DNA of 64,000 bases from Lytechinus pictus (lineage: Eukaryota), in contig NC_087251.1 of NCBI RefSeq assembly GCF_037042905.1, positions 22,136,001 to 22,200,000 of the forward strand, in the 5' to 3' direction. Under the pieces are notes generated by a model. That model did no database searches. It was not told the DNA's origin and saw only the letters and a program-made list of their open reading frames with translations. This document shows, in pieces, positions 1,141-64,000 of this stretch. Each line of letters opens with the position of its first letter. Position 1 is the stretch's first letter. The position numbers and the translations under genes are program-made.

Positions 1141-2744
1141 ATCAAAGTAAAACATGTTGACTCTATAACCTAAGGAGGAAAGAATGTTTTTGTGACAAAA
1201 TGTATATATTTAAATCAATATCAGAATAACAATCTACGGTATAATGACAGACATTTTCAGAAAAAGGCACAATATTATCAAGTAAACAATTTAGATCCAG
1301 TTCAATCCAGCATGAACGACTCACTATCGACCGCTCCCATCACCAAGCCCTCCGCATCGGGTACCGGTAGCTCGACTGCCGAAAGACGGACGGGAGCCCA
1401 CCGCATCGGGCAGCTCGACTGCCGAGAGACCGGCTGTGACAAGGGTAGCTCGCTTCTCTTATATCTGGACAGCTCAACGATAGAATCTTTTAATTTTAAT
1501 TTTTTTGTTGATTTGAATATATTCTATAACAATTCAGATACATAATTGAATCGTAGTTCTACTTACCATTAAAAATTTTTGATCATTTGCGCATCCAAAA
1601 ATTTGATGAACTTTCAAGCTCCGATATCCACACTTCACAGGCGAGTATCCACATTGAAACTTATATGTACAGAAAGAGCACATTTTCAACTGTCTGTATC
1701 AAGGCACGAGATTGCATCAACTATGTGCGCATGCGCATGAAACCCCATTTTCGATCACTCCTAGTACCAATGAGGTCCAACATTACATGTATGGACCTCA
1801 TAGGCGACATCAGTAGTATTTTGTGTCAGAAATCTTTGTGAAGATGATTATTTTTGTATTTTATCAAAACTACAAGCTATCGTACTGTCTAATCATTACA
1901 TTTCGATCTCACTAATTGAATACATTGTTAGCAATAAAAAAAATTGAAAGAAATGAAGGGGAACTTACATTTTCACGGCTTTTTCCTGATTTTCTGGGCA
2001 ACTGCTCCTCTCTTCTGACTTGCGATCGAAGCTGATATGAAGATCACGTGATTCGCGTTCTCGTCAGCTGATCGGTTGGTTATTCTTTTCGTCAGACGTT
2101 AATAATATATATTTTATAATGCTAGCATTCATCGCTAATTTAGGTGAAAGAGATTGAAGTTAAACAGCGCCAGGTCGGAATCATAATTATTTTGGAAGAG
2201 TGTATTTATACACTCGATCTCATACCTGACGTAGACGGCGCTATTCAACAAATGCACAATCTTCAATATAAAAATAAAACAGAAAGAACGCCTTGAACAC
2301 AGGCCAAAATGCCTAACGATTTCTCCGCGGCATTAACAACTATCGTAAAGGGCGCTCCATTTATCAATAAAGATGGACGCTAAGCTGTCTATGGCGACAA
2401 AATTTGCCGCAAATATTTACGAAGAATTGTGAGAAATGGTCTGAAAATGCAACAAAAGAACCGGTGAGTACCGATTAAACATTATTAAATTTATAAATAG
2501 ATTATACATACCTTGTAGATTTAGTTTTTAAGGTGATATTAGTGCTTAGTTCTAAGCTAGGGAGGCCCAAACGCGCGTGAGTGGAGTCCCAGTTTATTAG
2601 CACGGGTAAGTATTGGGGTGTCGCCTAGAGTGTTTTCGATGAGCCTCCCAGACAGAGGCGATGCCACTTGCAGCGAAACCCGCGCGAAAACCGTGCAGCC
2701 AAAACCAGCGCTCGCGATGCGCCCGTATTCGCACATACCTACTT

Positions 2745-3191
2745 CAGTAGAGGCGCACGGCCAATATTGGAGACTGTCTCCAATGTGGGAGATTATCTCC
2801 AATATCAGAGGCTTTTGTAAAGAATTTGGGTATCCAATTTCAGAGACAGTCTCCAGTTTTGGAGACCAATTTCCTTTGTTTACATTTGCTGCAAAAGGAT
2901 TACCTTGGCGGCAAATAAAAATGTGATAAGCAGATTCCTCATGAAAAATTACCCCTTTTCACCGTCTCCTTTAAAAATTCACCGTCTACTTTTGTTTTGA
3001 TAAGGATTTTTGTTGTCAATCACACACAAAACAAATGGGCTTCTGACCTCAGTGAGACAAAATTTTGGGTGGAAAAAATCATGCTTTTGTTGGTGTTGTT
3101 TCTTTTGTCCTTTTGCAAAGCAAGTCTCCAATGTGGGAGATTGTCTCCCCTATTGGAGAGAGTCTCCCATATTGGCCGTGCGCCTCTACTG
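2745..3191. mobile_element. Non-autonomous TIR element with CAG..CTG ends and 5-bp TSD
   Basis: ~30-bp TIR CAGTAGAGGCGCACGGCCAATAT(T/G)GGAGAC; TACTT flanks at 2740-2744 and 3192-3196. Confidence 0.85.
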
Positions 3192-3919: not shown

Positions 3920-3985
3920 TGTATATTGGTTTGAAAAGGCCAAAATTAAAAAAGCTCCATGTAATTCTGTAGAGCACGATATTAA

Positions 3986-10791: not shown

Positions 10792-11304
10792 CCAGGGGGG
10801 GGGGGGCACTCGACCAAAAAAGTGGTAGGGGTGTGCCGCGGGCGAGACAAAAAACGGGGGCCTTGGAGCGGGCTCATTGTAAAAAGGAGGGTCCTCGGAA
10901 CGGGCTTCGGAACTACAAATGTTTGTGAAAACGGGGGTCCTTGGAACGGGTCGCCTGCGTGCGAGTGCGTATGCATCCCTATGGAACGTGCATGCAGCTA
11001 GCCCGGCGGCACGACTGACGGGCGCGCTAGCGCAGAGGCGATGGTCGGAGAGCGAGCTGCGGCCGCTTTTCACCAAAATTGCGACCGGAACGGCGTAACG
11101 GAAAATATGCGAAGCCCTGGAGCGGATTTTTTTTTTTTTTTTTTCTCGAGAAGAAGAAAATGCTATGCTTTGGAGCAGCTTTCTTTGTTCTTTTTCTCAA
11201 TAAGACAAAAATGCTATGCCTCGGAACGGAAATTTGAGTGTAAAAATGGGGGTCCCCTCCGCGGCACATACCCACTATGCATTATATACTGAGTGCCCCC
11301 CCGG
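10792..11304. mobile_element. GC-rich non-autonomous TIR element (CC.G(n)CACTC ... GAGTGC(n)GG)
   Basis: Inverted termini, subterminal gtgtgccgcgg/ccgcggcacat, internal tcggaacgg repeats; flanks agcctaca/tgcctaca. Confidence 0.8.
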
Positions 11305-12547: not shown

Positions 12548-12566
12548 TGTACCGGTACATGTATTT

Positions 12567-14400: not shown

Positions 14401-15208
14401 CAGTGCGTCCCAGAAAAAACGAAACCGAGATTTAGCGATGATTTATCATAACTTAATCATAAATAAAATAGACAAATGACCTACCAATGTAAATCTTAGA
14501 ATCTCCTCTTTCATCTGGTATTACTTAGATTATTCCTAATTTACGCATGATTGAGCAAAAACAATTCGAAGAAAGGATGCCAAAAACTCATTTGGCGGGG
14601 GGTATCTGAATTTCAAAAAGAAAATCACATGACTAAAAAGTTTAATATCTTTTCTTTTCTTTGATACCTAAATTACAGAAAATGGTCATGTAGTAAAAAA
14701 TTTATGATCCCTCGAAACAATGCTTGTATTTCCATAATTTCATTAAATAAACGTGTTTTCACCGGTTTCCCACAGAAGCTATCGCACGGTAACAAAAGAC
14801 TTCATGCATGGCTGATCGTCAACAAAACGGAGTGTCGAGTGAGTTTGAACGCTAGCCTGTAAAACCTCTTCATTTTATGAAATTATTGAAATTCATGCCT
14901 TATTTCAAATGACCAGAACTTTGTTATTTCTTGACCATTTTCTGTAATTGAGGTATCAAATTAAAGAGCAGATATTGAACTTTTTAAAAATGTGTTTTTC
15001 TTTTTAAAACCCAGATACGGCCCGCCAAGTGACTTTTTGGTATCCGCTTTTCAAATTGTGTTTGCTCACTCATGCATGAATGAGAAATAATCTAAGTAAT
15101 TTCAGATGAAAGAGGAGATTATAAGCTTTAAAATGGTAGGTCATTTGTCTATTGTATTTGCGATTAAGTTATGATAAATCTCGGTTTCGTTTTTTCTGGG
15201 ACGCACTG
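14401..15208. mobile_element. Tc1/mariner-type MITE with ~300-bp inverted arms
   Basis: TA|CAGTGCGTCCCAGAAAAAACGAAACCGAGATTTA ... TAAATCTCGGTTTCGTTTTTTCTGGGACGCACTG|TA. Confidence 0.92.
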
Positions 15209-15704
15209 TATATGTTTATATAGCCTACACTGTACATACATGTTGTACAAATTAGGGTACAAACGGTTATTTCAAATGGGATTTCTAAACAGATTATGAA
15301 CTCAATTTTTTATTTTTTAAAATCCTAATTGTGATTTCAAAGTTTTATCAATTTTTACAAGATTTTTATTTTTGTTTATTTTCAGGTACACATACTTGTT
15401 GCATATAAACACATATGCTGAGGAATATAAGCAGGAGGAGGAATATTGTTTCAGGGGAGGATTGAAGGAACCCTATTTGAGCTATCATTTCATCCAGGAA
15501 TTTATATTGTGGATACCTAGCATAGCTGAGCCTGTGAAGAATGAGTCTCTGATAAGTGATTAGGAAAGTTTGACGTTGAACCATGGCATGCAATCATCAG
15601 CCATTCACTCCAAAGAGCAACACTCAATAGTTTCTAGTGCCTTGAACAGGGGGAAAATTTAAATTCTTGTGAACCGTGAAGGTTTTTCATCTATTCCTAG
15701 CAAG

Positions 15705-15878: not shown

Positions 15879-18800
15879 GTAAGGCTCATTTTTTCCCCTC
15901 TATGAGGCAGAAGTTGATGTTATAATTTGGAAATAGATTTTTGGCCTGGCCTACAATATTGTACACACATGTACAGTAGTGTGATGTACATGTACAGGAT
16001 AAAGTAGGAACATGTTCCGGTACTTATTGTTTATCTTGCATAATCAGATGAAGACTTCTTTCTTGTCAGCTGTACATTATAATATAATATGTTTATGAAT
16101 GAGTGAATGGAATTATAATTTTTATAAGATGCAGACATGAGCTATTTAAGAATAAATTTTTTTAATCAACAGAAAAAAAATTACTCTGACTACAAAAACT
16201 AAAATATATTCAAATGTAAGTATGTAAAACAGCAACAATAGTTAAAGAATAACAATAATGTATTACGAGCCTACATAGCCCTCCTTTAGCATGTGAAAAA
16301 AGTCTGAATGTTTACAAGTCATGGACATGTAATGTATGGTATGAATCAGAGCACACACCCACTACTACATGTAATTGCTACGTATTCTGACTAGCTGGAG
16401 GTGGGGCTGTTATAAGTGGAATTCCCTAATGTGTCATCATCCCAATCAATAGATGTACCGTATACCAGTACAATGAACCATGACCCTACCTGAATAAAGT
16501 GAATATATGTAATATATTTGTAATGTATGTGCAATGTGCATGTATTCCAAGTTACTTTAAGGACGTTCCACAGTTATGTTTGTGCGCATCATGGTCTGCG
16601 CATATTTTACACTCTGCGCGCTGACGTCACAATGAATGAACTGGTGATTTAATCAGCTGTAGGTAATATGAGCTGATTTTTGTCTCACCTGCATAGCAGA
16701 GTGAGACTATAGGCGCCGCTTTTCCGACGGCGGCGGCGACGGCGGCGGCGGCGGCGTCAACACCAAATCTTAACCTGAGGTTAAGTTTTTGAAATGACAG
16801 CATAACTTAGAAAGTATATGGACCTAGTTCATGAAACTTGGCCATAAGGTTAATCAAGTATTACTGAACATCCTGCCTGAGTTTCATGTCACATGACCAA
16901 GGTCAAAGGTCATTTAGGGTCAATGAACTTAGACCATGTTGGGGGAATCAACATCAAAATCTTAACCTAAGGTTAAGTTTTTGAAATGTCATCATAACTT
17001 AGAAAATATATTGACCTAGTTCATGAAACTTATACATAAGGTTAATCAAGTATCACTGAACATCCTGCATGAGTTTCACGTCACATGACCAAGGTCAAAG
17101 GTCATTTAGGGTCAATGAACTTTGGCCGAATTGGGGGTATCTGTTGAATTACCATCATAACTTTGAAAGTTTATGGATCTGATTCATGAAACTTGGACAT
17201 AATAGTAATCAAGTATTACTGAACATCCTGTGCAAGTTTCAGGTCACATGATCAAGGTCAAAGGTCATTTAGGGTCAATGAACTTTGGCCAAATTGGGGT
17301 ATTTGTTGAATTACAGCCATAAATTTGAAAGTGTGTTGGTCTAGTTCATAAAACTTGGACATAATAGTAATCAAGTATCACTGAACATCCTGTGCGAGTT
17401 TCAGGTCACATGATCAAGGTCAAAGGTCATGTAAGGTCAAAGAACTTTGGCCACGTTGGGGGTATTTGTTGAATTGCCATCATATCTCTATAAGTGTATT
17501 GGTCTAGTTCATAAAACGTGGAAATAAGAGTAACCAAGTATCACTGAACATCTTGTGCGAGTTATAGTAGTTTTCAAAATCAGCACTGCTGCTATATTGA
17601 ATCGCGTGATGCAGGTGAGACGGCCAGAGGCATTCCACTTGTTCTCCTTATCTGCACTAACTGCAGATCTGATGTGTTATTTTATGAAGCAAATAAACTG
17701 GAATTATTCCATGGACCATTTTTTTTTATTCCTGTACAATTTCAAAATAGTTTCTCTGTAGTGCTGCAAAGTATGATGAATATGACCCCAAGTTTGAATA
17801 AAGGGAAAAGTGGTTCAGAATTTTTCCTCACATAGATACTGCTTTTGGAAAGTTTTCGGGTGTTTTAAGAAGCAAATTTGCTCTAATAAGAGTGCTGATA
17901 GTTTGAAAACAAGCATATGAACCCATATTTTTTAAGGTTTGCACCTCTTAGGTATAGGCTACCTTCCTCTACAACTTTGCAAAGTTAGGTGAAAATTACA
18001 TGGGTTTTGAATAAAGTGCAGCATTTCTTTTACTTCTCAAGTTTGTTATTGAAATTTGAAATTTTTGAGGTTGAGTATCTTTCCCGCAATTTCTAAGAAC
18101 TGAGAGTGTTGTTAGACTTAAATGAGCAAACAATTGACAGCAATATAGATAGATTATCCATCTTACGGATACAATTATTAATCATATTGCAAAATTTGAA
18201 GAAATTTTTGTGGATTTTGACTGAGTAATAGGGCTTTCCACTCATTGTTGTGATCTCGTGAAGTCTAAAAATGCCAAATTCTTTTGGATACGCAATTCTT
18301 AAGAACATCATCCATTTTGGGTTAACTTTGAAGCTCTATAGCAAAAAATCAAGCATATGAACCCATGTTCATTTTTGCATATATTTGGAATATTCAGGTG
18401 CTAACGTATCTATGTGCAGAGTATGATGAAAATGACATGGATTTTCAATGTTTGGGAGCAGAACTACGGAACCATACGTATATTAGACATTTTGGACGGT
18501 ATTATCAGACTTTTACTTGTTTTCGGCGCATTTTTGGGCTGTTTAGACACTGATAGTTTAAAAACGAGCACATGGACCCCATGTTTTTAATATTTCAACG
18601 TCATCAAAATATATTTCTCTGCAAATCTATCGAGTATGATGAAAATTACATGGATTTTGAATGTTTGGGAGCGAAATATGAAACCATTTGCATTTTAGAC
18701 AGTGTTATCATACTTTTTGCTTGTTTTCGGCGCACTTTAGGTGGATTTCAATATTTTCAAGCCAACTCGCAACACTTTGGACATTGATAGTTTAAAAACA

Positions 18801-21800
18801 AGCACATGAACCCAATATTTTTAATATTTTAATGCCTTTAGAATATATTCCTCTACAAATCTAGAGAGTATGATGAAAATGACATGGATTTTGAATGTTA
18901 GGGAACAAAACTACGGAACCATTCGCATTTTAAAAGGCATTATTAGACTTTTGCACGTTTTGGGCGCATTTTGGGTGATTTTCATGCCAACTCGCATCAC
19001 TATGGAAACTCATAGTTAAAAACGAGCACATGGACCCCATATATTTAACTTCCCTACACCTTCGATATGCATTCCTCTACAATTTAGCTGAATTTGATGA
19101 AAATGACATGGATTTTGAAAAAAGTGCAGCTTACAAAATACTTTTTTAATTTTTGAGTAGATTCACGACTTTGAAGATTTGTTTTTCAGAGTTTTTGCAC
19201 CATTCTTGCCAAATGAGGGTGCTGCTGACTCCAAATAGATATATTTTTATCAATAAAAAGACTTTCTCTTACTTTGGTATACTACACCTTGTTATATATC
19301 TTGAAAATTTGATGACGTTTGATGCGGTATCCACTGAGATGATTTAAACTCATTTGGTGAATTCGTGAGGTCTAAGAGAGGCATATAATTCTCTTAATTG
19401 CGCAAGATTGCATATCATTCAAATACGGCGACTTTGAAGACCCGTAGAAAAAAAATAAGCACATGAACCTATATTATTTTTTGCATTTTCATAATGCATA
19501 GATACCAAAGTAACTCTCTGCAAAATTTGGTGAAAATGACATGGACTTCATTTTAACTGTGGAACGTCCTTAAACATGGACCTACATTTGTACTGTACTA
19601 GTACATGTAGGTCCATTCATGTACGTCGAATACAGTACATGCAGGCCCTATATTGTCTTTCAATTTCCAATTCAAACCTCTAACCTCGAATTCTCTGATA
19701 CTGATGCAAATTAATTCAATGTATTTCAAAGTCATTATTAGTACAGTTATTTATGTGTGGATATGAATAATATTTATTGTATCAAAACAAAATAAAGGGG
19801 GGGGGGTTCGTGATGAGGGTGAACAACGACTGAGGGGTGATTTATTGGAGAGCACTTTCCACTTGCAGTTGCATCCTTGCGCTCTCCTTGTATTATTTGA
19901 TGGTAATTCATTCCATTCCTGACCCCAGGGGCACTCTCAACATTCCAATAGGTTTTCCTGGTAGGCTGTGCTCTCTACATGTACATGTACCTCTGGCTAT
20001 CTTGCCTAGAGTAAAGAGGTAGTCAGTTCTCCTTGCTTTAATCCTACAAATGGCTGTCTTTATTGTTATAAATGTATATGTCTGTGTGCATCATATATTT
20101 TTGTTAACAGATGATATTATCTTTGGCTCACCTTTTTTCACACAACCCATTGTTTACATTTACATTAATTTTTTTTATAAAAAAATGCCAAATACACTGT
20201 ATTTGGATGTAAATACTGCTTATGTGATATTGAATTTTAATTTGTTACTGTTTAGATGTTATTATATTACTAGATTGGTTTTAATAATAGATCATACTTA
20301 AACACCCCTTCTCCATTTACAAAATATTAGGCCTTATCCAGAAAAATGTACATCTCTTTAAAAGAAAAAGTTATTTTGAAAGTGAAGTCTTACATATATT
20401 TTTGTGGTGTGTGTTTGCAGAGTATCTACTTTGGCCTCCAGTATAGCAACAAGAACTACAAGCTCCGATGGGTGGATCTAGAGAAACCGCTAAAGAAACA
20501 ATTGGACAAGAATGCCCATGACTCTATGCTTCGTCTGGGTGTCATGCTCTATACAACCAACATACAAACACTGAGGCATGAAATAACAAGGTAAAGGTGA
20601 AAAATACAGGCATTCTATTGTGTCAGCAAATCTTACACATTTCTGGACAATTGAGTTCGATTGGACTGTTTAAGAATCAACTTAATTGCATTTGTGTTGT
20701 AATTGTGCTTGGCCGATATACATGGTAGGCCATTTATACAATCTGTTATTTAAAAGCCTATCTATAGCCAATACCATACCTCTATTTTACATGTTTAAAA
20801 AAAAATTCTGTTGAAACAAAAGTGAAAAAGAAAGTGAATGAAAATATGTGGCCTGTAGATGATAACTTGTAACCACATACACATGTAGGCACATATAGGC
20901 CTGCCCTACATGTACATGTACAGTATGCGTATTGCGTAGGCAGACGTACATACTGTATGTACAGGCCTTTTAAACACACACATGTAGGTGTTTGCATTCC
21001 GGAATGATGAGTCAATATTATTGGAAATGTACCATTACTTCTTAAATTTTGTCTGCATGTACATGTATTGATATTTATGTAGGCCTACATAGTTTTATTA
21101 TACTGTATGTAGGCCTACTGTATTACACATATTACTCAATACTCAATCACGCAATGATCAATAAGTTTGGTATGTACATGTATGCTGTAAAGTAAAGGGG
21201 ACGTTCACCCTGACAAAGTTTATTGTAAAAATACATGTAGCAGGAAAAATACTAAAAGATGGATTGTGAAATTTTGAGGAAAATCCATCAAATTTAAACA
21301 AGTTATTAGAATTTATTATATATTTTTTTATTTGTGATGTCATATTCGAGCTGCTTCCGGCTTCCCCATATATTGTGTTGAGAAAGAATCAATCAAATGT
21401 CATTTTCTCAGAAAAATTTAAAATGGTTTTTATTGTAGGCCTACAGGTCTTCAGTATATCACTAGACAAATCATTTCACACCCGCTTCTAAAAGAAAAAA
21501 AAAAAGTCATCATGAACCATTAACAAATTGAAATTTATGCATTTTAAATGACATAACGTATGATATGAAGCAATATTCCTCAAACCTTCACCAACATTTT
21601 TAATATATTTTTTTTTCTGGTATTTTTACTACAAACTTTTCGTCAGGGTCAGGGTGAACATCCCCTTTATGTAGGCTACATGTAGTTTACAAAATACAAT
21701 GTACAAACAACAACAACAACAACTTGTTTTGTAGGCCTACACTGTACATGTATATATACACTTATATATGTTACCAATAAAAAATACAATGGTAAGGGAA

Positions 21801-24800
21801 CAGTGATGATGAATGTTCAGTTAATGTGATATTGATAAATTCCTACAGTGTATTTTCCCCTTTTTGTTAGTGTTGTTGGTCCCTTGTATACAACTCTGCC
21901 TGCACATGTCCTTGAACCATTTAAGAAGGTTCAGAAATTCATGTAGAAAGTTTTGTTGTGAAATGAAAGGGTAAGAAGGTTAATCGTTGTGCATGCCAGC
22001 TGCCTAGTTGTTGAATGTCCTCAAGCTTTCCAGTTCATGGCATTGCAGTCCAGAGTCCGAGTTCCCACACTGATTCAATTTCACAAGAAATATGTGATGA
22101 ACTTTCTTGGAATTCGGAAAAGGATCAGTGCCTTTGTCAGAAAAAGGAGCTTTTAATAGTATTTCAAAACACACTGAATTGCTCAATACTTGAATCACTA
22201 CTATGTACATACATGTACTTTTAAATTTTAGTTTGTTTCCCTTCCTGCTTTTGCGCTATTACCAATGTGTAATTCATAATGATACATATGTAGTAGGCCA
22301 TTTACAGTAATTGACCTAAATTTTTTGATGTAAAAATATACATGTATGCGTAAGTATTTATGTTTTATAGTTGGTTTACCATACATGTAGACTTTGTCTA
22401 CTGCCTACATGTACATGTAGTTTTTATATTTTTAGTTACCTTGTTAGTACAATTGATTGTGCATGTATGTTATACAGTGGGTAAATACCATGATTTTGTT
22501 CAAACACTGAACAGGAGCTGATCAGAATTGTTCTTTGAAAAGTTTGAATATTTTCAATCCATCCCAATATATGTTTTACAGGGCCTGAATGTACAATGTA
22601 CATGTACATGGAGCTTTAAAATAGAAAACAAAATAAGAAAGTAGGGTCTTTGTCATTGTATTCTGAATAGCATTTGTTAAAATTAAAAAAGGCCTAATTG
22701 TATGCCTACACATGAAACACCGCCATTGGCTCCATGATTGGACACTATTCTTGTAGCCTTCAAAGAGGTTTTGGACAATGGTTTGATAAAACATTTTTCA
22801 GGATCTTTTGGGCTTATTGTACTTTTGTTGATTGCTGCAACAAAAAGTACATTTAAAGTATCTTTTGCCTTGTCCTGCCTGGCTAGAAGTATGTGGGATT
22901 ATTTCCTTGAAAAATAATGAAAAGAGTCAACTGCCCATTGCATACCAGTCTTTTATTGACGACTCAGGTCACATTCCTTCCTCGCAGGTCATTGTGTTTT
23001 AGCAAGAAGTACATGTAATATGTCCAGTCCAATCGTCCATACTGCTAATGCACAAAATGGTGATACTGGTATTGATAGCATACTTTAGCTTTCTGCATTC
23101 CTTATTGTTACACTTTAGGTTCAGTCTGGAAGGAGCAAACTTAATTCATAAGTCAGGCATTTTATAATGATAATTTACATTTTATAAACTTGTGTCAGCA
23201 TATATATGTTTCTACCAACATGTATTGTGTGGACATTTAAAGGAATTTGTGCTTGGTACATGTACTGTGATAGAGGATTTAGATGTAAAGTTATTATCTG
23301 TGTACTTGTGCATGCCATAAGTAAGATTTCTTCCATATTTAGGCCCACATGTACATGTATCTGTAAGTGAATTTGTTGAAATACCGTACATACATATGAT
23401 AATTTACAAGTGATGGTTTATATCAACCTTAATTAAAATTACAAAATTCTATAAAAAATCAGTCAAAAAAGTAAACACAAGGTAACATTTAAATTTGAAA
23501 AATATATCAAAGGCACCCACATTGATTCCAACTACATGTTTGTTAAAATTGTCAAAAAAATGTTAACATATGTACATGTACATGTTACCAAAATGTCAGA
23601 GTCTCAGAGATTTTGTAGGAAGTATTACTGGTAAAAGAAAATGGAACTTAGATGTAGGCTACATGTACATGTATAAACTAAATTTTTTTTATTTCATTTT
23701 ACTTGCACAGCAGGCCGACATGTAGGCCTACATTATTATCTGTGTATTGTAAATAAATGATATAGATTTCTAAGCAAAAATTAGAAGGTCAGGTGAAGTT
23801 CAAAGTTTTCAACTCATTTACCTGATGCAATGCATTCATTGAATTGTTTGAACTTTGAAACAATACATTCTAACAGGTCAATTACATGTCACAAAGTTAT
23901 GCATTGTGATTGTTATTTATTTATTTTTCTGTTTTAGATACATGTACTTCTTGCAGTTGAAGAGTGATATTATTGAGGGCATTTTACCATGCAGTGAAGA
24001 ACAAGCAGTGACTCTGGCCAGCTTTGCTTTACAAGGTGTGATTTTTACTTGTTTATTTATTCATTTTATTTGTTTATTGATGTATTTATTTTTTGTTTGT
24101 TTATTTATGTATTTATTTGTTTGTTTATTTATTCATTTATTTGTTTATTTATTTATTTATTCAGTATTATTTTTATTTATTTAGTTATTTACATTGTAGG
24201 TTCTAATAAAAGGAATGTATATTGAATGTTGATTAAGGATGTTTTCTGTTTTTTACATGTATGTAAACTTTTATGATTATCAATTTTTTGGCCTATGCAA
24301 TAACCGCAATCTATAGCTGCATACACTGTATATGTAGGCCCTGTCTTGTCTGCATTGACTTTTTAGCATCATACATGTAGTGTATTGTGATTAAACAGGA
24401 GACAGATCTCATAATCACATCAAATCTGCAATGAATTCTATTTAGTTTCCAAGTTTGAGGAATTTCACACGTCCCTTCTGAGTCATTATTTGGTTTGCCT
24501 TTTCCATCAAAATGGTCACAAAATCACTCCAAAAGATCCCCAAAATACCAGCCCAGGAACATTCCTTCCTGAAAATGAAAACCACTATTCCTTGTCAAAT
24601 GTGGTCTCTCGCTGTGACCTTATTTCTTGTGAATGCCTTCCCAAAATCCAGTGAATGTCTGTCTCTCATGCATGTGACTACTGAGCTTATGTTTTTCTTT
24701 CAATCTTTCTCTCTTCTCTTTCTCTTTCCCCTCTGACAGCTGAGATAGGAAATTTTGACCCCGCCAAGCACACTGTGGAATTCTACCAGAATGAATATGT

Positions 24801-30800: not shown

Positions 30801-33800
30801 TGTCTGATCCAGCTTGGTACTCTGACCAGAACAGACTTGAGATATTTTTTTTTAAATATTAAGAATCAGTTTAATAGAGGGTTATTTTGTGAGTTTGATC
30901 CTGAGATTACATGATGCTTGGGTCAACTCAGGCTTATTTTTGTTGGTAGGGGTGGGGGAGTGGTGCAAAATAGTGTATATTTATTGATATTGATAATATA
31001 ATTGATATTAAAGCATCTGGCAAATATGTTTACCTGATCATATCATGATACTAGACAATGAAACAAGAAACAAAAAGTACATATCGCCTACATGCTTTGT
31101 ATTGTAGATAATGGAATTATTTGCTACTAAATTGAGAATCACCTTCTCTCTAGCTTTCTGATGGGTTTAGAGACGAATTTCCTGAATCTCAAGCTTTTTC
31201 TTTCAGTCCGATTGGGCTGCCGCTAGTTAAGGAAGAAAGAACAAAACTGAGGCTGATGGAGAACCACCTCTTAATAGCATCGAGAATTCCAAAATGTAAA
31301 CATATTCTATTTTGACATGTCACATCTGTATAGTGAGATACCATGTGCAAATAATACGTATAAAGTGCATATCCTTGCATGAGTTATTGTATAAACACAA
31401 GACCAAATTTAGGGATGATATGATTGTCAAGTACATGTACATGTATGAGTAATATTGATAATGTCTGTCTCAAGTTTAACATTAAGGTGTACCTGAGGCA
31501 ACATTGTTGAATATGATAAATATGCTTTAATAGTCATAGGGTACACTGTGCTTAGAGAATGACCCCATAGTAAATAACATACCTCTTAGGTAATAAGAAC
31601 ATAAAAATTACGTTTGATACATCGTGAGACAATTGGTTATTTCTTCGACTCAATCCTTCACCACGATGAACCCCTTCCACATCAAGAACATTCATGTACA
31701 TGTTTTAAAGTGGAAATTAAAATATTTTTTTTCTTCAATATTCTGATATGTGATATGAATATGAATATGAGTTCATTTTAAGATTTTTCTTGTCTCGTAG
31801 AATTTCAATCCAATACACCTCTTACCTTGTTCGTGTATATGCCAATACTGCAATATTATGGTAATATTACTGGTGCACATCATCAAGCAATACCAAAATC
31901 TCATGATGTATGTATGGGAATATACTGTACTCATGATTCTGCATTATTGCAAATATTTAAAGTTCTTAAGTTTTTGAAGGGTCCTAATAATTATGAAAGT
32001 ATACAGATCCAGCTCATGAAACTTGGACATAATTAGTATTCTAGTATCACTGATCACCTTGCTTGAGTTTTACATGTAGGTCACTTGATTAAGGTCAAAA
32101 GTCATTTAGGGTCGATGATTTTTTACCATAATTTAGGGTATATACACTACCATATTTTGTTAATGTCATCATAACTCTGAATGTTCATGGATCTATATGT
32201 AGTTAATTAAACTTAGACATACAGGAAATCATGTATCACTATCATTCTGCATGAGTTTAAGGTTATATGATTAAGGTCATAGGTCATTTAGGGTCAATGA
32301 ATATAGAATTTTATCATACGAATTGTCTTTTGTGAAGTTTTTTTAGCTGTTTTCAAAGTCAGCACTGCTGCTATAGTGAATCCCGTAAATGCAGGTGGGA
32401 CTGCCAGAGGTATTCCACTTGTCAATATTGTGGTTTGTTCCTTGAAATTACATGTGTTTCAACCAACATCTCTGTAGTTGTTATTTTGATTCTTACTTCT
32501 TGCAATTCAAAAAAAAATCTATAAAATGCCTAGCTTAAAGAAAATGTTGATATTTTTTATTTTGCCTTCCTTGTCTTAAATAGGTGGCATGAGGTTGTGA
32601 GCATGGGCCACAATCGGCGGGCCTTTGGGGTTGGGACGTCCCGCTCTCATGATGTCCTGCAATTTCAGATGGATGATGCGGAGACAGCCAAGTATGTGTG
32701 CAGAATATGCAGACTCCAACAGCAGTTCCACAAGTATACAGTTGAAACAGTCAAGTGAGTCAGTTGGAATATGCCTTAACATTTAAGAGCTATTCATGGC
32801 ACTATATACACTTGTAGAATATCTTCACAGAAACAAGATTAGCATCCTGAGCAAGTGGGGTGTACTAGCAGATAAGGAATATCAGAAATTACGAGAGAGA
32901 TGTCAGTTTTGAAGACTACCTTTACGATGTGCATGTACATGTATGTTTAGTGCAAGTTCTGTCTATGAAACATTTTAGAAAATTCCGTGTCACACTTAGT
33001 GGTGTCTTTCAGCTGAATCCCGTTCAAGATCTTTTCCTTCTTATATTCTCATTTCAGTATATACACGAACATGAAACAGTGGGAAAGCCAACATACTTCC
33101 CGGAAGTTGTGAAGCTGTTTAAAATCAATATTATAAATATTTTACTACACAATCATTCTTGCGTGTATGATAGGGGTTTGAGCTTTGATTCATTTGATAA
33201 GAAAAGGGCAAAATGCACTTCCTTGTTTTGTGAATTTTGGCCTCTATTTGACCTCTTCTATAACTCTAATAAAACTAAACTCATGAATTATGGAATGTTA
33301 TGAATGCTTAATGTGTTTTTAAAGTGCTTTAATCCCTCCCTGGAGCTGAAATGCATAACAAAACCACATACTGATGTATGGAAGCAACCAAACAACTGAC
33401 TAACACAATCAGTTGTATTTATATATTGTTGTTGATGGGACAATGAAATTTATTACCACAATATCTAATGCTTTGGGGTTTTGTTATTGGGGTTCAACCG
33501 GAAAAAAGGACTGTGTAGTGGCTTTTTGTGGAATAAATATGTGGTGTTTTTTAAGTGGAAAAATCCACTATGCTGGTGCCACAAAAAAGTTTGTCCACAT
33601 CAAATTAAGGTCTGATTGAAAGTGTATTTAGGGTCAGCAAAATTATTTTTTCCTCAGCATCATTGGATCATGGTCATTGTAGACTGTATCATTGTATTTA
33701 ATTAGCTAGCAATAGTGCGGCCTGGATTGGTCAAGCCACCTCAGGTTAGTGGCACATCAATGCTTGTCTGAACGCACAGACTGATTAGCACTTCAGTCAA

Positions 33801-44000: not shown

Positions 44001-46110
44001 TCTCAAATGGGGCATTATTGATCACAGAGTACAAGTTTAATATGTACAATTTTTTTTCTGGGGGGGGGGGGAGGGGGCTATGCTACCTGTGCCACTGGAT
44101 CTGTACCTTCTAATGGCAACATCACTCTGACTGGCAGAGATCCTAAGATAAAGGTTTTCACATTAGAATCTGTTCTAGCCATTGTTACTTGCCCCAACAT
44201 CGTAAAACCACAATAATGCTTAGCGTTTACTGATTACAATCATACTAGACAAGCTACTTGAACAAGACTATCAAAAAGAATCTGGACCATTTCTCAAGAG
44301 AAAATGGATTATTTTTTTTTGGCATAGTGAGTATAGACTGCAGCAATATCTTTTGGGCACTGACTGGTATAGTACACACACCAAACAAACACATACATAC
44401 ACTCAACCGATCACCAAAAACGCATCCACTTCTCTCCAAATAGAACTACATTTCTGGTTGATGGTTTAGGAGCTCTTGTATTTATTCACTTGATATGATA
44501 CCTGCCTTTCACTGTCCATCTTTCATAGACATGTAGGTTGCTCTGTGTAAATCTTGACAGCTGTCGATGGTCAAGTAAATCGACACAAGACACACAAATA
44601 GGGAAATATATTCTGCACAAAATATAATAGCTGACACATATTTACCACACTTCACACAAAACATTATAGGCCTGATAAAATAGAACCATGGTTTTGGAAT
44701 TATAAAAGAAATCTCTGAATGTGCATAATTAAAAGTGACAAAAATTAGAATTTACTGTTGCTATTTACTGAATTAATTAAGAGAACATCATTTGATGAAT
44801 ATTTCTCAATATAATCAATTGAATCAATTATAAAATTACTAACATTGATCGAATCTAATTTTATTATCGCTACCGTTCTGAAAGACACAAACCTAAAGGC
44901 ATTTTATGTACAAATAAATATGTATACATCTATTTACAACTTATAAATATAAAAAATTGCAGCATTTACAAAATATGTACATTTATACAATTCCAAATAT
45001 AGGACGGTATTTGTAATAATCTATACAAATCTATATTTCATATACTTATGGAATGGAATGTCTATCCATTTGAATACATGTAATTTACATGAATGTAATA
45101 TCAATAGAATATAAAGCATTCAATAACATTTTGAATGAAATTCCTCAAATGAATGTTTGACAATACAATTTTGGTGGACATAACCAACTGGCATTATGAT
45201 TGATATAATTTCCTTTTAGACATTTATCTTGCTATCAAACAAAACCCAATTACCTGAGTGGTCAATAGATGATGACTGTCATCTTGAATATTTCTAAATG
45301 CAATGTTCAGGAAATCTTGGTGATAGGCCAGTCTGGAATATTAGGTGTACATACAAGAAAGTTGTGTCTGAAAGACTCTGACAAGGCAACTTAATCATAT
45401 ATTATTGACTGAACCCTTTTACACACAGTGCAGTCACTTGAGAGTACTGGGGTAAGGCCAATATGCTTAAAAAAGTACTGATAACCTATTTCATATTTGC
45501 ATAGAACTTCTGAAACAACTGCTGGACAGTCTTTCAATGACAATCTTGTCTTGCAACAACCCTTGACACACTTCTACGATTTATTCATTAATTCTTAAAA
45601 TTTAATGATTTCTTTTACATGCTGTTGGACAGAAAGTTCAGAGAATGTTTAACATTCATCACCTCCTACCCTCGAATTGTATTTTCTCCAGAGGTCTCAG
45701 AATTCCTTCTCTCTGCTGCATCTCTCGAGACGATTTCCTTCCACAGTTTTCTTTCTTCATACAGAATGTCCAGATACACCTCTATCAGGTTCTGAAAGTT
45801 CAGCTCATATTCACATAGACTCTCTTATCTTTGCTATCCAAATCAATCCCATTCAGATGGCTGCAGGACACATCTGTCCTCTTCTGTCAAGGTATGTCTC
45901 CATCTAGATCTGAGTCAATCCTTGAGTGTTCTTCTACATCATTCCCATTCAGACAGCTACAGGATAAACCTTCAGAATGTTCAGATATCCTTGGGTTTTC
46001 TCCATCAGATTGTGGCAGTTTCTGATATCTTTTGTAGTTTCTTCAAAATGTAAAGGCACATCTTTATCAGGTTCTGCATGAATCAATGTGATCTTCTTGA
46101 TCAAACCTCT

Positions 46111-46296
46111 TCAGACGGCTGCAGGACATACCTTCTTAAGAATGTTTAGATACGCTTGGTTCTTCTCGACCAGGTTGTGACAGTTTCTTTCTGCTGTTTT
46201 CTGTCTTTCCTCTGTTAGCTGCAATGTCCTCTGCAGTTTTGAGTTCTCCACATACAGCTCCTTGAGAAGGACATCATGACGAGTTGTTTTAGCCAG
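46111..46296 (-). CDS. NIN/NINL: ninein last coding exon
   Basis: LAKTTRHDVLLKELYVENSKLQRTLQLTEERQKTAE...CPAAV*; conserved ninein/NINL C-terminal motif. Confidence 0.9.
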   Translation of the reverse strand: MAKTTRHDVLLKELYVENSKLQRTLQLTEERQKTAERNCHNLVEKNQAYLNILKKVCPAAV

Positions 46297-49200
46297 CTAA
46301 AGATGAAGAAATGGATGAAGAGAATACACATATTTGATAACATGATGTCAAGAAGCACATACATATTTAATTCATACACTGTAGATGGTTACATTTGAGG
46401 TACAGACATTTTCATGATATATTTTACTCAATTAAAATATTAATAGTGCTTCTTGAGATTCTGGCATTGTTTGGAATCGGAAATTCTGGTGATGCTGGAC
46501 AAGTAACATTACGCAAGAAAACAAAACAATGCTGTAAATTTCAGCAATTGAAAAAAAAAATCCACAATCAAAACACATTAAATCTCTTGAAAAAGTTCCA
46601 AGCAAAAATATGATGAGTAAAAAATGTATCATTAAAAAAAAATGAAATAAGGAAACACAAATTTGTCTAGATCTGATTAATCAAATTGGCTTGGAGCCTC
46701 CATGTAATAGAGATAATTTTATGTTTTTTTTTCCTTTCTCAATAAACATATAAGACATGTACATAATATATATCAAGTACAGTGTTCTAGTTGCCATTAT
46801 TCTTTCACTTTCCTTAACATAAACTCTTTTAAGATACCAAAGTTTTATCAGCCTCGCAGTCCAATATTAGAAATCCAGAAGCAATATAGCTCACCTGATC
46901 TTTGAGTTTCTTCATGTATTCCTCCAACATAGCCCTCATCTTCCTGTACTTCTTCTCTGCTTCCTCCTTCCCTCTCCTCATCTTCCTAACCTCCGACCCC
47001 TCTGTCTCCTTCCCGATAGACAGCGCCCTCTTGAGTTCTTCGGCTTTCTCCCTGATCTGCCTGTCAAGCTCCTTGATCCTGCCATCTCTCTGGGCCAGTT
47101 CTTCCCTGAGATGGCCCAGCTCTCCTTGGAACTCCAGAGTCTGCTTCTGCCGTACCCGTTCCAGCTCCCTGGAATGCTGTGAACTTGCTACTGAGACCTG
47201 CATCTGCATGTTGATGTACTTTGGTGTGAAGATGGAAAAAAAGAATAATCCTTTTTAATATGTCTCATCAATCTTCATATTTATAGAAGCTAAAATACCT
47301 TCACTGAGGTTCTTGTGATTTTCTATCTCTAGTTCTCAAGTTGTATGCCAATGACAGTTGCAATCAAATTGATCTTCATGGTCAACACTTCTACTGAGAA
47401 TTTGAGATGAAATTTATCATAAATACATACTATACAACCTTTAATTAACCCATGATCAAATTATTTTTTTATCCACCATCATAGATATAATTATGATCAG
47501 GACACCTGTAAAGGTAGATTTTTGCAGCCATACATATCTTTTGTCCCACCACAAAATGAAAATATTTATGTTCAAAGAATATATCTTCTTTGCCATTTCT
47601 TGGATAAAAACAAACTACTGTATCCAAAATAAAATCTGATTTGGAGGAATGAATTATCATAATGGTAATAAAAACACATAAATTATCAAGACAGACAGAT
47701 AATGGCCTTTGAACTTGCGATATAGGCCTACTTCTTTATCATGAGAATTGGATCTAATACTTGGTTGCAACATATGCAATGTGTCAAGTATACATTAGGA
47801 GATAAACTAGAGGAGAAAATTCTTTTTTTGAATTGATATCTACCTTTTTGTTGAGATCCTCTAGCTCCATCTTGAGTCGAGATTTCTCTGTCTCTAGAGC
47901 AATCAGCTTTGTCTGTAAAGATAACAAAACATTGGTTAAAATTTTAAATCCTATGTACAACAAATGAAAAGCATGAAAGTGATTAGGGGCCTTGTTGTAC
48001 TGAATCTAGTCCACATCACCATGTCCCAAATGACATCAAATGGAATGGAGAGCAATCCAATTAAATTACTTTAATCACTGTTTTGAGTAATCACAATATG
48101 AGCATGTTTGGTGTAAACGGTTCCTTTGGAAGTTATTTCTACTGTTTTTTATGCACCTATTGTTTGAAAAGATTTGTATTCTTATATACTTCAAGTTAAA
48201 ATAATGCAACTATTTCTTTATTAGTTCTGTATATATCTACATGACTTTATCTATTTGACTTTGAAGAAATAACATGAGTCACATATTTATTCTAAAACAT
48301 TGCTTTGACTGCTTATTATTTTGGAGGTAGAAGAAGGCAAGGTTATCTTTTAGATGTGTACCAAAAAAGAGATTTAGTTTCAAATTTAAGAAATTATTGA
48401 TTTTTCTATGAAATGGTGGTCAGCATGGATTTTGTTAAATAATCAAATCTATAACAGAGAGAACACTATATACACTGGAAATGTACACAAACCTTTTAGA
48501 CAAAGACAGTTTTTGACAACCTGAAAGCTACATGATTTAGCATCAAATAATGTATGCAGTTGATTCAAAGCTTTAAAGAATCGTTTTTAACATAAAATAG
48601 CTCCAACTAAGTCTTTCTACACACTAAACAAGAGAGAGCTCGCAAAGAATAATAGCTCAGAAAATTTTCTGGAAAAAAGCCAACCTCCAAGGTGTGAAGA
48701 TCTTTACTCGTCGAGTCTGCTTTTTCTGTCATCATCTTCAATTTCTCTTCGGACGCAGAGAGTGCGACCTTGAGAAGGTCACGCTCAGTAGAAAGTGCAT
48801 CATAAGAAGCCTAAAGACACAGCAGGATAGGAATAGAGAGTGCAAGAAAGAGATGAAAGGCACAGCAATAACACTGAAAAAATGGCTTGTATAGACATAG
48901 CACAACAATATCTCCCCCTCTCGTATTACAGGATGTTCATGAATACAATAGCAAAGGAATATGGGAAGACCAAACAAATGTTGCTGTGACAGGACTATTT
49001 GTTATCAGCTTGCTACATAAGGATGCGAACAATTTGGGTTTCAAATTCAGAGCACGATATGTTGCCATGAGTTGGTCAATACATCTTAGGGCAAAAAAAA
49101 AAATCCTCTTCAATTTCAGAGTGTAATTCATAATTTTGAAGCCCTATCTAAACATTGAAATTGTCACAAAGGTTCATTGTGTGGCACTGTCACACCGAGT

Positions 49201-51365
49201 CTGTACAAGCCTGAATGCAAAATTATCATTGCAGATAAAAAAAAAAATACCAAAGAAACAAAACAGGTACTATTAACGGCACAATAAACTGTGTTATTAT
49301 GACAACACACAAAGCAAACAGATTATCTTAACAATATTATTATTACAGAAAAGAGGAGATAAATCAGAGTACATCAAGCAATATTTGAGCAAAGGAATCT
49401 TTATTTATATTCATTTGAAATTACTCATTGTCTTTTTAGCACACTGAGATATCTCATGATTTAATAATAATCAATTTACAATGGCAAATCAATTACCAAT
49501 CACCAACCTTTCTGCCATCACTTTAAATTTAATTGTGTTTACAGATACTTTCACTTAGGTGTGGTACATTTTAAAAACTTCAGTTGAAGTGTATGAAGGT
49601 TGGAAAAAGAATTTAAGAAATAATGATGTATAACATGAATGAAAAAAAAGTGAAAGCATATATTTTTATTTTCATAGAAACCATGTTACTAAACTATCGT
49701 TTCTCTAAAAAACACACAGCCACACAAATTGAATCTGAATCATTGAAGTAAAATTTACGCAACACGAAATTAGAATAATGCTATACATTTTTCATAGAGA
49801 AAAGAATATACAATAATTGCTCACTATATTGACAAAATAAAATGAAAGATTCACATTAACATGCAGAGAAGTGTCACATTGAATTTCAATTTAAAATTTG
49901 GAAGCAAAAATGTTAACTAAAACATCTTTAAGAAATAATAAAAGCACTGCAAATTCAATATGATGAAGCTGACAAGTACTTCCAAAAAGGATGCTAAAAA
50001 TCTATGTTATTGCCCATACCTTCAACTTGTTGTAGCAATTACTAAGTTTCACCTAAGATCTAAGATTTTAAAACTGAAAAAAAAATTTTGCAAGGACACT
50101 AGAACAGGATGTGCTGTAACATAAGGTGATGTTTGGACAAGATTAAGACCAGGATGTGCTTCAATAGCTTTGGCTGTAATATTCATTTTGTCAAGTTTGG
50201 CAGGGAGGTCATCATTATCCCTTCCAGATACTATTATAGATTTAATCCTCATTGCATCATGTATGGCGATACAATGAGAGCAAGAGGATTTAAACTAAAT
50301 GAAACAGCTTAACTTCCTTTTTTCTAGAGTATAATGCTATGGAACAGGACATCCTATACTTGCTATATATTTAGGGTAGTTTCTTTTAATGGAATGCTTT
50401 AAATTGAAAATTTGGGTCTTGTAAAATATAAACTTATGATTATGGAAACTTTCATGCTAACCTTGTTTTCAAGATTTCTCATAATTACCATGATAACAAA
50501 TTTAACAACTTTTTATTTTAGCAACAGGTCTCAGACCGTATATTTTTTGATATCATGAATTAGGATCACATGTGACCTGAGTCACCTGACAAATCAACAC
50601 ACATAAATGTTTTTTAAAGGTGAATAATCCATTACTACAGGTCTCAACAACAAAGAAAAGTGTAAGCACACACACACATAAACTATCTACAAGGACACTA
50701 ATGACACTAGGCACAGCAACAGTTTTCTCTTTTTGTTACACCTGGTGTGTAACATATTCTATTGGAATGATTTATGTCCAATCAGTATATCAAGACTTAC
50801 CCTATCAGGCCTGGCTTGCTGTAATGCTGCTTCCTGTGTTTGCATATGAATAGCTACTACAGCTTCCTCTTTAGCCACCTCAGCCTATCGTGATAAATTC
50901 ATCAAAATAACAGATCACATTTTTAATCATGGAGACTTCAACAGTGAACAAAATTGGGGATCAAACTAGGCATTCTCATGTGGAATACATGTTTACTTTG
51001 GCAGCATTTCTTTTTTTAATTAAAACTTATTTATAAAGGAAATTTATAACTATGACAGGGTCATCCCCCATAAAATTGACCCTGGATTAAGGAGGGCATG
51101 TGTAATATACATTTTCAGATGTTATGGAAAATATAAAACATGAGCAAACGTAGAAATAAAAATAGGAAGAAAAGAAAAGGGAAACATTAATAAAGCTAAA
51201 TTTGGCTAAAAAACCATAGGGCTGATCTGAAGGTGGCGTTTAGTTTTTATAAGCTTCATGGTAAATACATGGTACAATGTTAGTATGGTTTACAACAACC
51301 ATAAGCAGAATAAATGAGTGATTATTAAAAACAATTATATATAAAACATTTCCTCTCAGAACGAA

Positions 51366-51397
<32 letters not shown>

Positions 51398-63883: not shown

Positions 63884-64000
63884 CTGTAGAAAAGAAAACA
63901 AATAAAAAAAAAACATTATCAAATGCTGATGTTACAAATCAGGAATCAGAAGAAAAAATGTTAAATGTGAATTCAAAACGTATTACAGATGGGAAACAAT

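Follow-up and report, generated by a model that had tools for sequence, protein, structure and literature searches.

Palindromic TA-bounded words in the 5′ introns of a Lytechinus pictus phosphatase gene as probable scars of cut-and-paste transposons

The 64,000-nucleotide stretch of Lytechinus pictus DNA analyzed here (NC_087251.1, positions 22,136,001–22,200,000; hereafter, the window) is AT-rich eukaryotic DNA that holds a PTPN14/21-like gene (7861–41062) and, tail to tail with it, an EF-hand and coiled-coil gene. The early introns of the PTPN14/21-like gene are crowded with short words in which three to five bases lie between two TA dinucleotides, among them TACATGTA, TAGGCCTA, TACCGGTA, TACACTGTA and TACAGTA. 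The original prediction, made from the sequence alone, had taken such words for footprints of transposon excision. We find that the words are derived insertions at TA sites, concentrated in a patch spanning introns 1–6 of this gene (Table 1), and that Tc1/mariner-type cut-and-paste transposons, which target TA, probably left them as neutral scars.

Results

Enriched words form a patch at the 5′ end of one gene

Expected counts for the window were taken from a second-order Markov (Markov-2) model. TACATGTA occurs 61 times (3.8 expected), TAGGCCTA 11 times (0.39), TACCGGTA 4 times (0.28) and TACACTGTA 7 times (0.93); the seven-base words TACAGTA (25 versus 13.2) and TAGCCTA (12 versus 3.8) are also in excess, and TACCGTA (5 versus 2.5) is not significantly so. 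The enrichment of 8-mers over a Markov background, proposed earlier as a check, is thus present within the window. Enrichment above 10-fold is limited to 3 of the 16 palindromic TA-NNNN-TA words, and none of the remaining 13 exceeds 3.6-fold; there is thus no general excess of palindromes. The span 20860–23760, for which 500 dinucleotide shuffles served as expectation, contains 19 copies of TACATGTA (shuffle mean 0.29, maximum 3) and 5 of TAGGCCTA (mean 0.012, maximum 1), together with one TACCGTA and no TACCGGTA. The claim that the words recur very often therefore stands in the window for TACATGTA, TAGGCCTA, TACCGGTA and TACAGTA, but not for TACCGTA, nor for TACCGGTA in this span. Neither are the palindromes pervasive, as 56 of the 61 TACATGTA copies are confined to 8–33 kb of the window. 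At 23939 the word lies in coding sequence (read in frame as Tyr-Met-Tyr) and represents a chance occurrence. No strand bias is seen, except for TACACTGTA at 6:1 on few copies.

Within introns 1–6, the words fall into three series; expectations, given in brackets, come from a background trained on word-poor introns. The CA..TG series comprises TACATGTA with 52 copies (1.3), TACAGTA with 13 (4.2) and TACACTGTA with 6 (0.3); the GG..CC series TAGGCCTA with 9 (0.08), TAGCCTA with 9 (1.0) and TAGGGCCTA with none; and the CC..GG series TACCGGTA with 2 (0.05), TACCGTA with 2 (0.5) and TACCCGGTA with 1 (0.02).

Core words occupy 64 of 1278 TA sites (5%) in introns 1–6, 4 of 603 (0.7%) in introns 7–15 and 3 of 1206 (0.2%) in the introns of the EF-hand gene, with 0 of 337 between the two promoters and 3 of 157 in the first intron of a leftward gene. 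The patch starts at the first splice donor (8022), which was placed by its position after a CpG-rich stretch and not from reads, and fades by intron 8. A motif layer written into transcribed DNA at large, as originally proposed, does not agree with this distribution, given that later introns and the neighboring gene carry 8- to 21-fold fewer words per TA. CpG is equally depleted in the three intron sets (observed/expected (o/e) ratio 0.28 in introns 1–6, 0.21 in introns 7–15 and 0.27 in the neighbor), so that methylation or transcription alone do not explain the patch. Intron length was also rejected as a cause, one intron of 704 bases having three words and another of 2888 bases none. The start of the EF-hand gene lies outside the window; the 5′ pattern thus stands for one gene.

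The words are derived insertions at TA sites

Contigs of four public runs (X3, X6, X10 and X11) were aligned to 19575–24040, and 12 of the resulting 231 indel rows were listed. A high-copy miniature inverted-repeat transposable element (MITE), presumably TTAA/Kolobok-like, carries two words in this region. The proposed insertion at 21232 was borne out: the family state TA|GCAG is present in 21, 26 and 11 contigs of X3, X6 and X11, respectively. The second word, TAGGCCTA at 21436, is part of a longer insertion; at 21437, TA is followed by CCTTCAG in 18 X6 contigs, and matching loose ends before 21449 occur in 37 (X3), 38 (X6) and 8 (X10) contigs. Since other copies of the 21196 MITE family lack CATGTA (at 21234) and GGCCTA plus four nucleotides (at 21438), both insertions are derived.

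Self-alignments of the window (n = 43) gave eight six-base gap rows, all accounted for by two insertions, of CATGTA at 32073 and of TATGTA at 32196. The latter confirms the predicted insertion at 32194, with the difference that the insert reads TATGTA rather than CATGTA. At 32071 and 1362, the extra 6-bp unit is present as predicted, but the empty paralogs carry CA or AA instead of TA, so that an extra substitution (C>T) is required. Insertion at TA with duplication of the TA is accordingly observed at 21232, 21436 and 32194.

Gap counts for contigs of another organism (organism A) amount to two bases missing over 20999–21275 and none over 22818–23108, which would place the words in 20999–21275 and at 23010 before the split from organism A. 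Of the ten internal ends in pieces of organism-A contigs, four coincide with a word, against 8.7% expected (p = 0.008), or three of ten (p = 0.04) if one word added afterwards is dropped, and one piece (23509–23656) is six bases short across a CATG stack; both observations are hints only. The indel table over 19575–24040 is filled by MITE paralogs, and the sequences from X10 and X11 hardly differ from the window. These two runs are RNA-like: a contig of depth ~25 over exon 20421–20590 runs off the stretch, and their coverage of intron 3 (20561–23442) is thin but matches the window almost without exception.

Stacking and target-site context

The window has 106 word clusters, 16 of them stacks; 15 stacks lie in 8–33 kb, nine of which mix different units on shared TA. 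All stacks named in the original prediction were found, but its explanation, that footprints create new TA targets, falls short. Modeling every scar as one added TA, with all TAs treated alike, yields 4.3 stacks in 8–33 kb compared with the 15 observed, a number reached in 0 of 5000 runs. Extra TA count alone is thereby rejected as the cause of stacking, so that either a more favorable target context or local hot spots must be invoked. For the densest part alone, the model gives 3.5 stacks versus 7 observed (P = 0.03), and for 24.2–33 kb, 0.9 versus 2 (P = 0.2). Clusters are not clearly closer to one another than random TA sites are (11 versus 7.1, P = 0.07).

Outer flanks of 72 clusters show A at position −3 in 57% of cases versus 34% in the background and T at −1 in 10% versus 32%. 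With CATG/GGCC-like half-sites removed (100 of 144 left), the values are 45% versus 30% and 13% versus 35%, respectively; older, more decayed units could still inflate this bias. The transposase target context of A at −3 with T at +3 is present at 20 of 59 clusters versus 220 of 1718 free TA sites (p = 4 × 10⁻⁵). Occupancy of TA sites rises from ~1% at a low match to the Tc1 motif to 14% at 6/8 matches (7 of 52), with 0 of 6 above. In the literature, target motifs are given as CAYATATRTG for Tc1 and RCAYATATRTGY for Sleeping Beauty (SB) (PMC9635669, PMC2577343). Three of the four half-site bases would be supplied by a CATG scar, and this may be why scars stack. Core words also lie within 40 nt of 9 of the 18 ends of other terminal inverted repeat (TIR) elements (background 12.8%; borders set by hand, two ends sharing a cluster), which suggests shared insertion hot spots. 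Among 33 single TACATGTA sites, 17 have neither CATG within 12 nt nor directly adjoining TG/CA; inserts are thus independent of their flanks at these template-free sites.

Decay, age and candidate donors

One-mismatch variants exceed expectation for both TACATGTA (43 versus 13.6) and TAGGCCTA (13 versus 2.2), and the CpG-decay product TACTGGTA occurs five times (0.5 expected), with one intact TACCGGTA outside transposable elements (TEs). The ratio of excess to intact words, ~0.6, suggests a mean age of ~7% substitution per site, which would correspond very roughly to one scar per TA per substitution per site. TEs in introns 1–6 carry 3 core words on 552 TA sites compared with 64 on 1278 outside them, as expected if scars accumulate over time.

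An intact TA-flanked CAGTG..CACTG element had been noted at 14401 and was recovered at 14401–15208. Judging from its ends, it is a candidate donor type for CATG, CAG/CTG and CACTG, and the bases inserted in the CA..TG series equal the terminal two to three bases of this one resident TA-duplicating element. The proposal of CA..TG, CC..GG and GG..CC families is therefore matched by a CAG-ended donor type, whereas GG- and CC-ended donors were not found in the window; likewise, when the inserted 4-mers are compared with resident termini, CATG fits the ends of the 14401 element and GGCC and CCGG have no partner among the TA-flanked inverted termini of the window.

Metagenome loci

A sample of 120 metagenome loci (323 kb, seed masked) was picked by one mixed stack and is hence biased and from other organisms. 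It contains TAGGCCTA 71 times (2.7 expected), TAGCCTA 86 times (26) and TAGGCCCTA 14 times (1.1), of which the last two complete the GGC series. CATG sites repeat the flank bias (A at −3, 45% versus 30%), and central variants of TACATGTA occur near background. Many loci with both words have a CpG o/e of ~1, so the words are not tied to CpG-depleted DNA there. Among six-base indels of these loci (182 indel events in 305 alignments), TA duplications account for only two of nine, both one mismatch from GGCC. Single cases include two loci (L036 and L111, below the 75% identity filter of the indel count) that differ by exactly one GGCCTA unit, and one (L054) in which a TIR-like start, CAGGGTG.., sits on the last TA of a stack. 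Another, L115 (264–347), holds an 80-base, TA-flanked hairpin with GGCAC..GTGCC ends and TA-bounded units piled at its center, a candidate GGC-ended donor type by its sequence, although in another organism. Sixteen viral loci hold two core words in total besides the seed and are uninformative, and 34 bases of the MITE at 3982, used to scan metagenomes, gave no match.

Genes and other elements in the window

The subfamily name of the PTPN14/21-like gene is our assumption from its domain order. Its long 5′ untranslated exon 2 is non-coding over 15386–15704, and the gene model, which includes a 2.1-kb internal exon with a PPPY motif, translates cleanly. The EF-hand gene, which we take to be ninein-like, has introns with few recognizable TIR elements; one of its exons had no match in an Atlas search. 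The first exon of the leftward gene (1969–2100) ends in an ATG directly before the splice donor, and its first intron has three core words in 2 kb. A TTAA-flanked element with GGACGTTCCACAG ends and internal tandem units of 213–234 bases occupies 16555–19573, with an element of 163–192-base units nested at 16670–17640. At 2745–3191 lies a CAGTAG..CTACTG element that seems to have duplicated a 5-base target, TACTT, and at 10794–11294, directly after a word cluster, an element with G-run/C-run ends and repeated GCCTACAC on its flanks.

Table 1 Features of the window discussed in the text
Feature	Position	Strand	Description	Control or support
Word-rich patch	8022–29728		Introns 1–6 of PTPN14/21-like gene; 64 core words (55 clusters), 1278 TA, 13.1 kb non-TE
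Intron 3	20591–23937		Densest part, contains 20860–23760; 24 core words in 2.9 kb non-TE, 8.4 per kb
PTPN14/21-like gene	15705–41062	+	FERM and tyrosine phosphatase; 15 coding exons, ~1354 aa, no internal stop
EF-hand and coiled-coil gene	45542–64000	−	Word-poor intron control
MITE	21193–21669		High copy, AGGGGA.. ends; two derived insertions at family TA sites	Read contigs
TA[CATGTA]	21232–21239		Insertion; family state TA|GCAG	Contigs: X3 21, X6 26, X11 11
TA[GGCCTA plus CAGG]	21436–21447		Insertion; TAGGCCTA at 21436; family state TA|CCTTCAG	Read contigs
TATGTA	32194–32201		6-bp insertion at family TA	TA in three paralogs listed, TG in one
6-bp insertion	32071–32078		In repeat copy; weak control	Paralogs CA or AA at site
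TACCGGTA	1362–1369		In one copy of short local duplicate; weak control	Other copy has CA
CAGTG..CACTG element	14401–15208		Non-autonomous, flanked by TA, 808 bases	38 terminal bases fully complementary; longest open reading frame 52 aa
Stack	20907–20925		CATG, CATG, CAG sharing TA
Stack	21732–21752		GGCC, CACTG, CATG (three different units) sharing TA
Stack	23655–23673		GGC, CATG, CATG
Stack	12550–12563		CCGG, CATG; between two unrelated TIR elements

Discussion

The tests for a Tc1/mariner footprint that were run gave the corresponding results for the CA..TG series; the GG and CC series are putatively assigned by their word series. By the known mechanism, an element would insert at TA and duplicate it, and its excision would leave two to three end bases on each flank. 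End joining would then keep 2 + 2 bases (CATG, GGCC, CCGG), overlap three (CAG, GGC, CCG) or keep 2 + 3 (CACTG, GGCCC, CCCGG), which points to end types CAG..CTG, GGC..GCC and CCG..CGG. Inserted copies would usually leave again, before or after spreading, so that scars outnumber intact elements. A CATG scar supplies the half-site C-A-T, which resembles the Tc1 target CAYA-TA-TRTG, and, with local hot spots, this would lead to stacking, as is partly borne out above. The rate would vary by region, being highest in the 22-kb patch from the 5′ end of the gene, probably through germ-line chromatin access or the choice of repair pathway.

Parallels with known systems are close in part. As a footprint of Tc1, TACATGTA has been described before (PMC3520976, citing Eide and Anderson 1988). 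The C. elegans footprint taCATGta is the same word, composed of the TA duplication and two terminal bases per CA..TG end, in a CAYATATRTG-like context; it is called rare there (PMC3520976), whereas here one word sits on ~4% of the TA sites in the patch, beside GGCC and CCGG series. Tc1 excision leaves 2-nt 3′ overhangs (PMC4490562). For SB, whose footprint is TACAGTA/TACTGTA, the seven-base words (13 versus 4.2 in introns 1–6) and the A−3/T+3 bias are shared; by contrast, the 2 + 2 product dominates here, TACATA/TATGTA are not enriched and TACACTGTA is outside the set listed in the accessible part of that report (10.1101/659086). Rice excision scars are likewise inherited DNA-transposon scars recognized by sequence comparison and often near genes, but are mostly deletions and fillers, with 8 of 94 clean (PMC4423477), whereas the class seen here is stereotyped enough to dominate k-mer counts; irregular scars are invisible to a word-count method. 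Phytophthora motif-1 is the same palindrome, TACATGTA, and is abundant near genes, but was interpreted as a binding site for a transcription factor, with a footprint expressly set aside (PMC3520976), unlike the insertion at TA seen here. Our literature search, to which most subscription papers were outside, found no genome-wide description of such scars in an invertebrate, no mass, inherited and patchy occurrence, no paper with TAGGCCTA as a whole word and none on transposon excision footprints at TA dinucleotides in sea urchins. The scar itself is known from nematode and SB experiments; what the window adds is the signature of the target site, the series of words and the patch they form.

Several points weigh against excision scars. 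In the window, TAGGGCCTA is absent and TACCCGGTA occurs once, and neither GG- or CC-ended elements, among its TA-flanked inverted termini, nor a transposase were found. No excision event (filled versus scarred allele at one locus) was seen among the 12 of 231 indel rows in the 4.5 kb covered, and two of the four controls put forward originally have CA or AA at the empty site. Words in 20999–21275 and at 23010 appear common to organism A and are therefore not evidence of recent gain. TACATA/TATGTA, the commonest Tc3 footprints and also SB products, are not enriched (38 versus 31 expected), and TACATGTA is missing from the SB footprints listed in the portion of that paper available (10.1101/659086); it is, moreover, a binding word of Irx and NACC1 (PMC3520976, PMC11472053). 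In the C. elegans germ line, breaks left by Tc1 are mostly repaired without error or with highly variable products, wild isolates showing fewer than ten scars (PMC4490562), and in rice no more than 8 of 94 excisions were clean (PMC4423477). The model therefore requires end joining in the germ line to be exceptionally clean, unless clean scars are simply the fraction that can be recognized. Non-homologous end joining is reported for the soma and theta-mediated end joining (TMEJ) for the germ line (PMC13148408). Finally, central A/T variants of TACATGTA number zero in introns 1–6, compared with 16, 12 and 15 at the other positions. Plain neutral decay does not predict this gap (8022–29728), which may reflect chance, CpG reversion or constraint.

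Four other origins were weighed. A process free of mobile elements, in which a nuclease (for example, a domesticated transposase or a topoisomerase) cuts open 5′ chromatin at TA and a few stereotyped palindromic bases are then added by a repair polymerase, would account for a patch that tracks gene anatomy, for the lack of GG- or CC-ended donors in the window and for the very high implied rate, roughly one scar per TA per substitution per site. We nevertheless consider it unlikely: 17 of 33 inserts are independent of their flanks, the three-, four- and five-base series correspond to fixed termini, of which one set occurs at 14401, the bias in the flanks agrees with the target motifs of Tc1 and SB, and we know of no repair enzyme that writes such words. 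That the words are selected binding sites gathered by first introns, TACATGTA being a preferred site of the Irx homeodomain and bound by the BEN domain of NACC1, would agree with the highest density lying in 5′ introns and with the lack of central variants of TACATGTA in the window. Yet the words arise as insertions within repeat copies, different cores are stacked on one TA frame, decay products are in threefold excess and central variants are near background in the metagenome loci, all of which renders selection as the source very improbable; some scars may later have been co-opted as binding sites.

Assembly of the words from neighboring sequence by slippage, snap-back or locally templated duplication draws on the 7 of 16 stacks that are pure CATG repeats, on TG/CA directly adjoining 11 of 33 single sites and CATG within 12 nt at 12 of 33, and on CATG close by in paralogs of the 32071 repeat. 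With nine mixed stacks, 17 of 33 single sites template-free and the 21232 site lying between AAAAA and GCAG, such slippage, which the original prediction had named as grounds for its own rejection, does not explain most single sites, and we give it little credence beyond the lengthening of pure CATG stacks, to which it may contribute. Conversion of TACGCGTA to TACATGTA by CpG deamination in methylated DNA could appeal to the CpG depletion of the densest introns (o/e 0.16–0.24); however, TACGCGTA is absent from the window and the intermediates TACGTGTA/TACACGTA from both intron sets, deamination can yield neither GGCC nor a gain in length, and equally depleted introns are without the word. It is barely conceivable, and as the main source is ruled out by the insertion controls.

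If the words are indeed scars of Tc1/mariner-like excision, a wider reading can be offered tentatively, as a possibility that we do not ourselves favor: hit-and-run transposition would be a leading germ-line mutagen at TA in defined chromatin patches of this animal, about as frequent per TA as substitution is per site, with several transposase families feeding one clean end-joining route and scars making better next targets. Word density would then preserve, like a fossil map legible in a single genome, where the germ line was accessible or which repair route it took, with Irx- and BEN-type words seeded in first introns as a by-product.

Excision normally leaves little readable trace, and natural germ-line cut-and-paste rates are poorly known. 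With a scar on 5% of TA sites, past excision would become countable by family, through end sequence and cut depth, and by region, and the patch would allow one to ask directly whether transposons are steered by germ-line chromatin or by the choice of repair pathway. By the same token, when motif discovery in genomes of this kind yields TACATGTA and TAGGCCTA, their origin may be mutational rather than regulatory.

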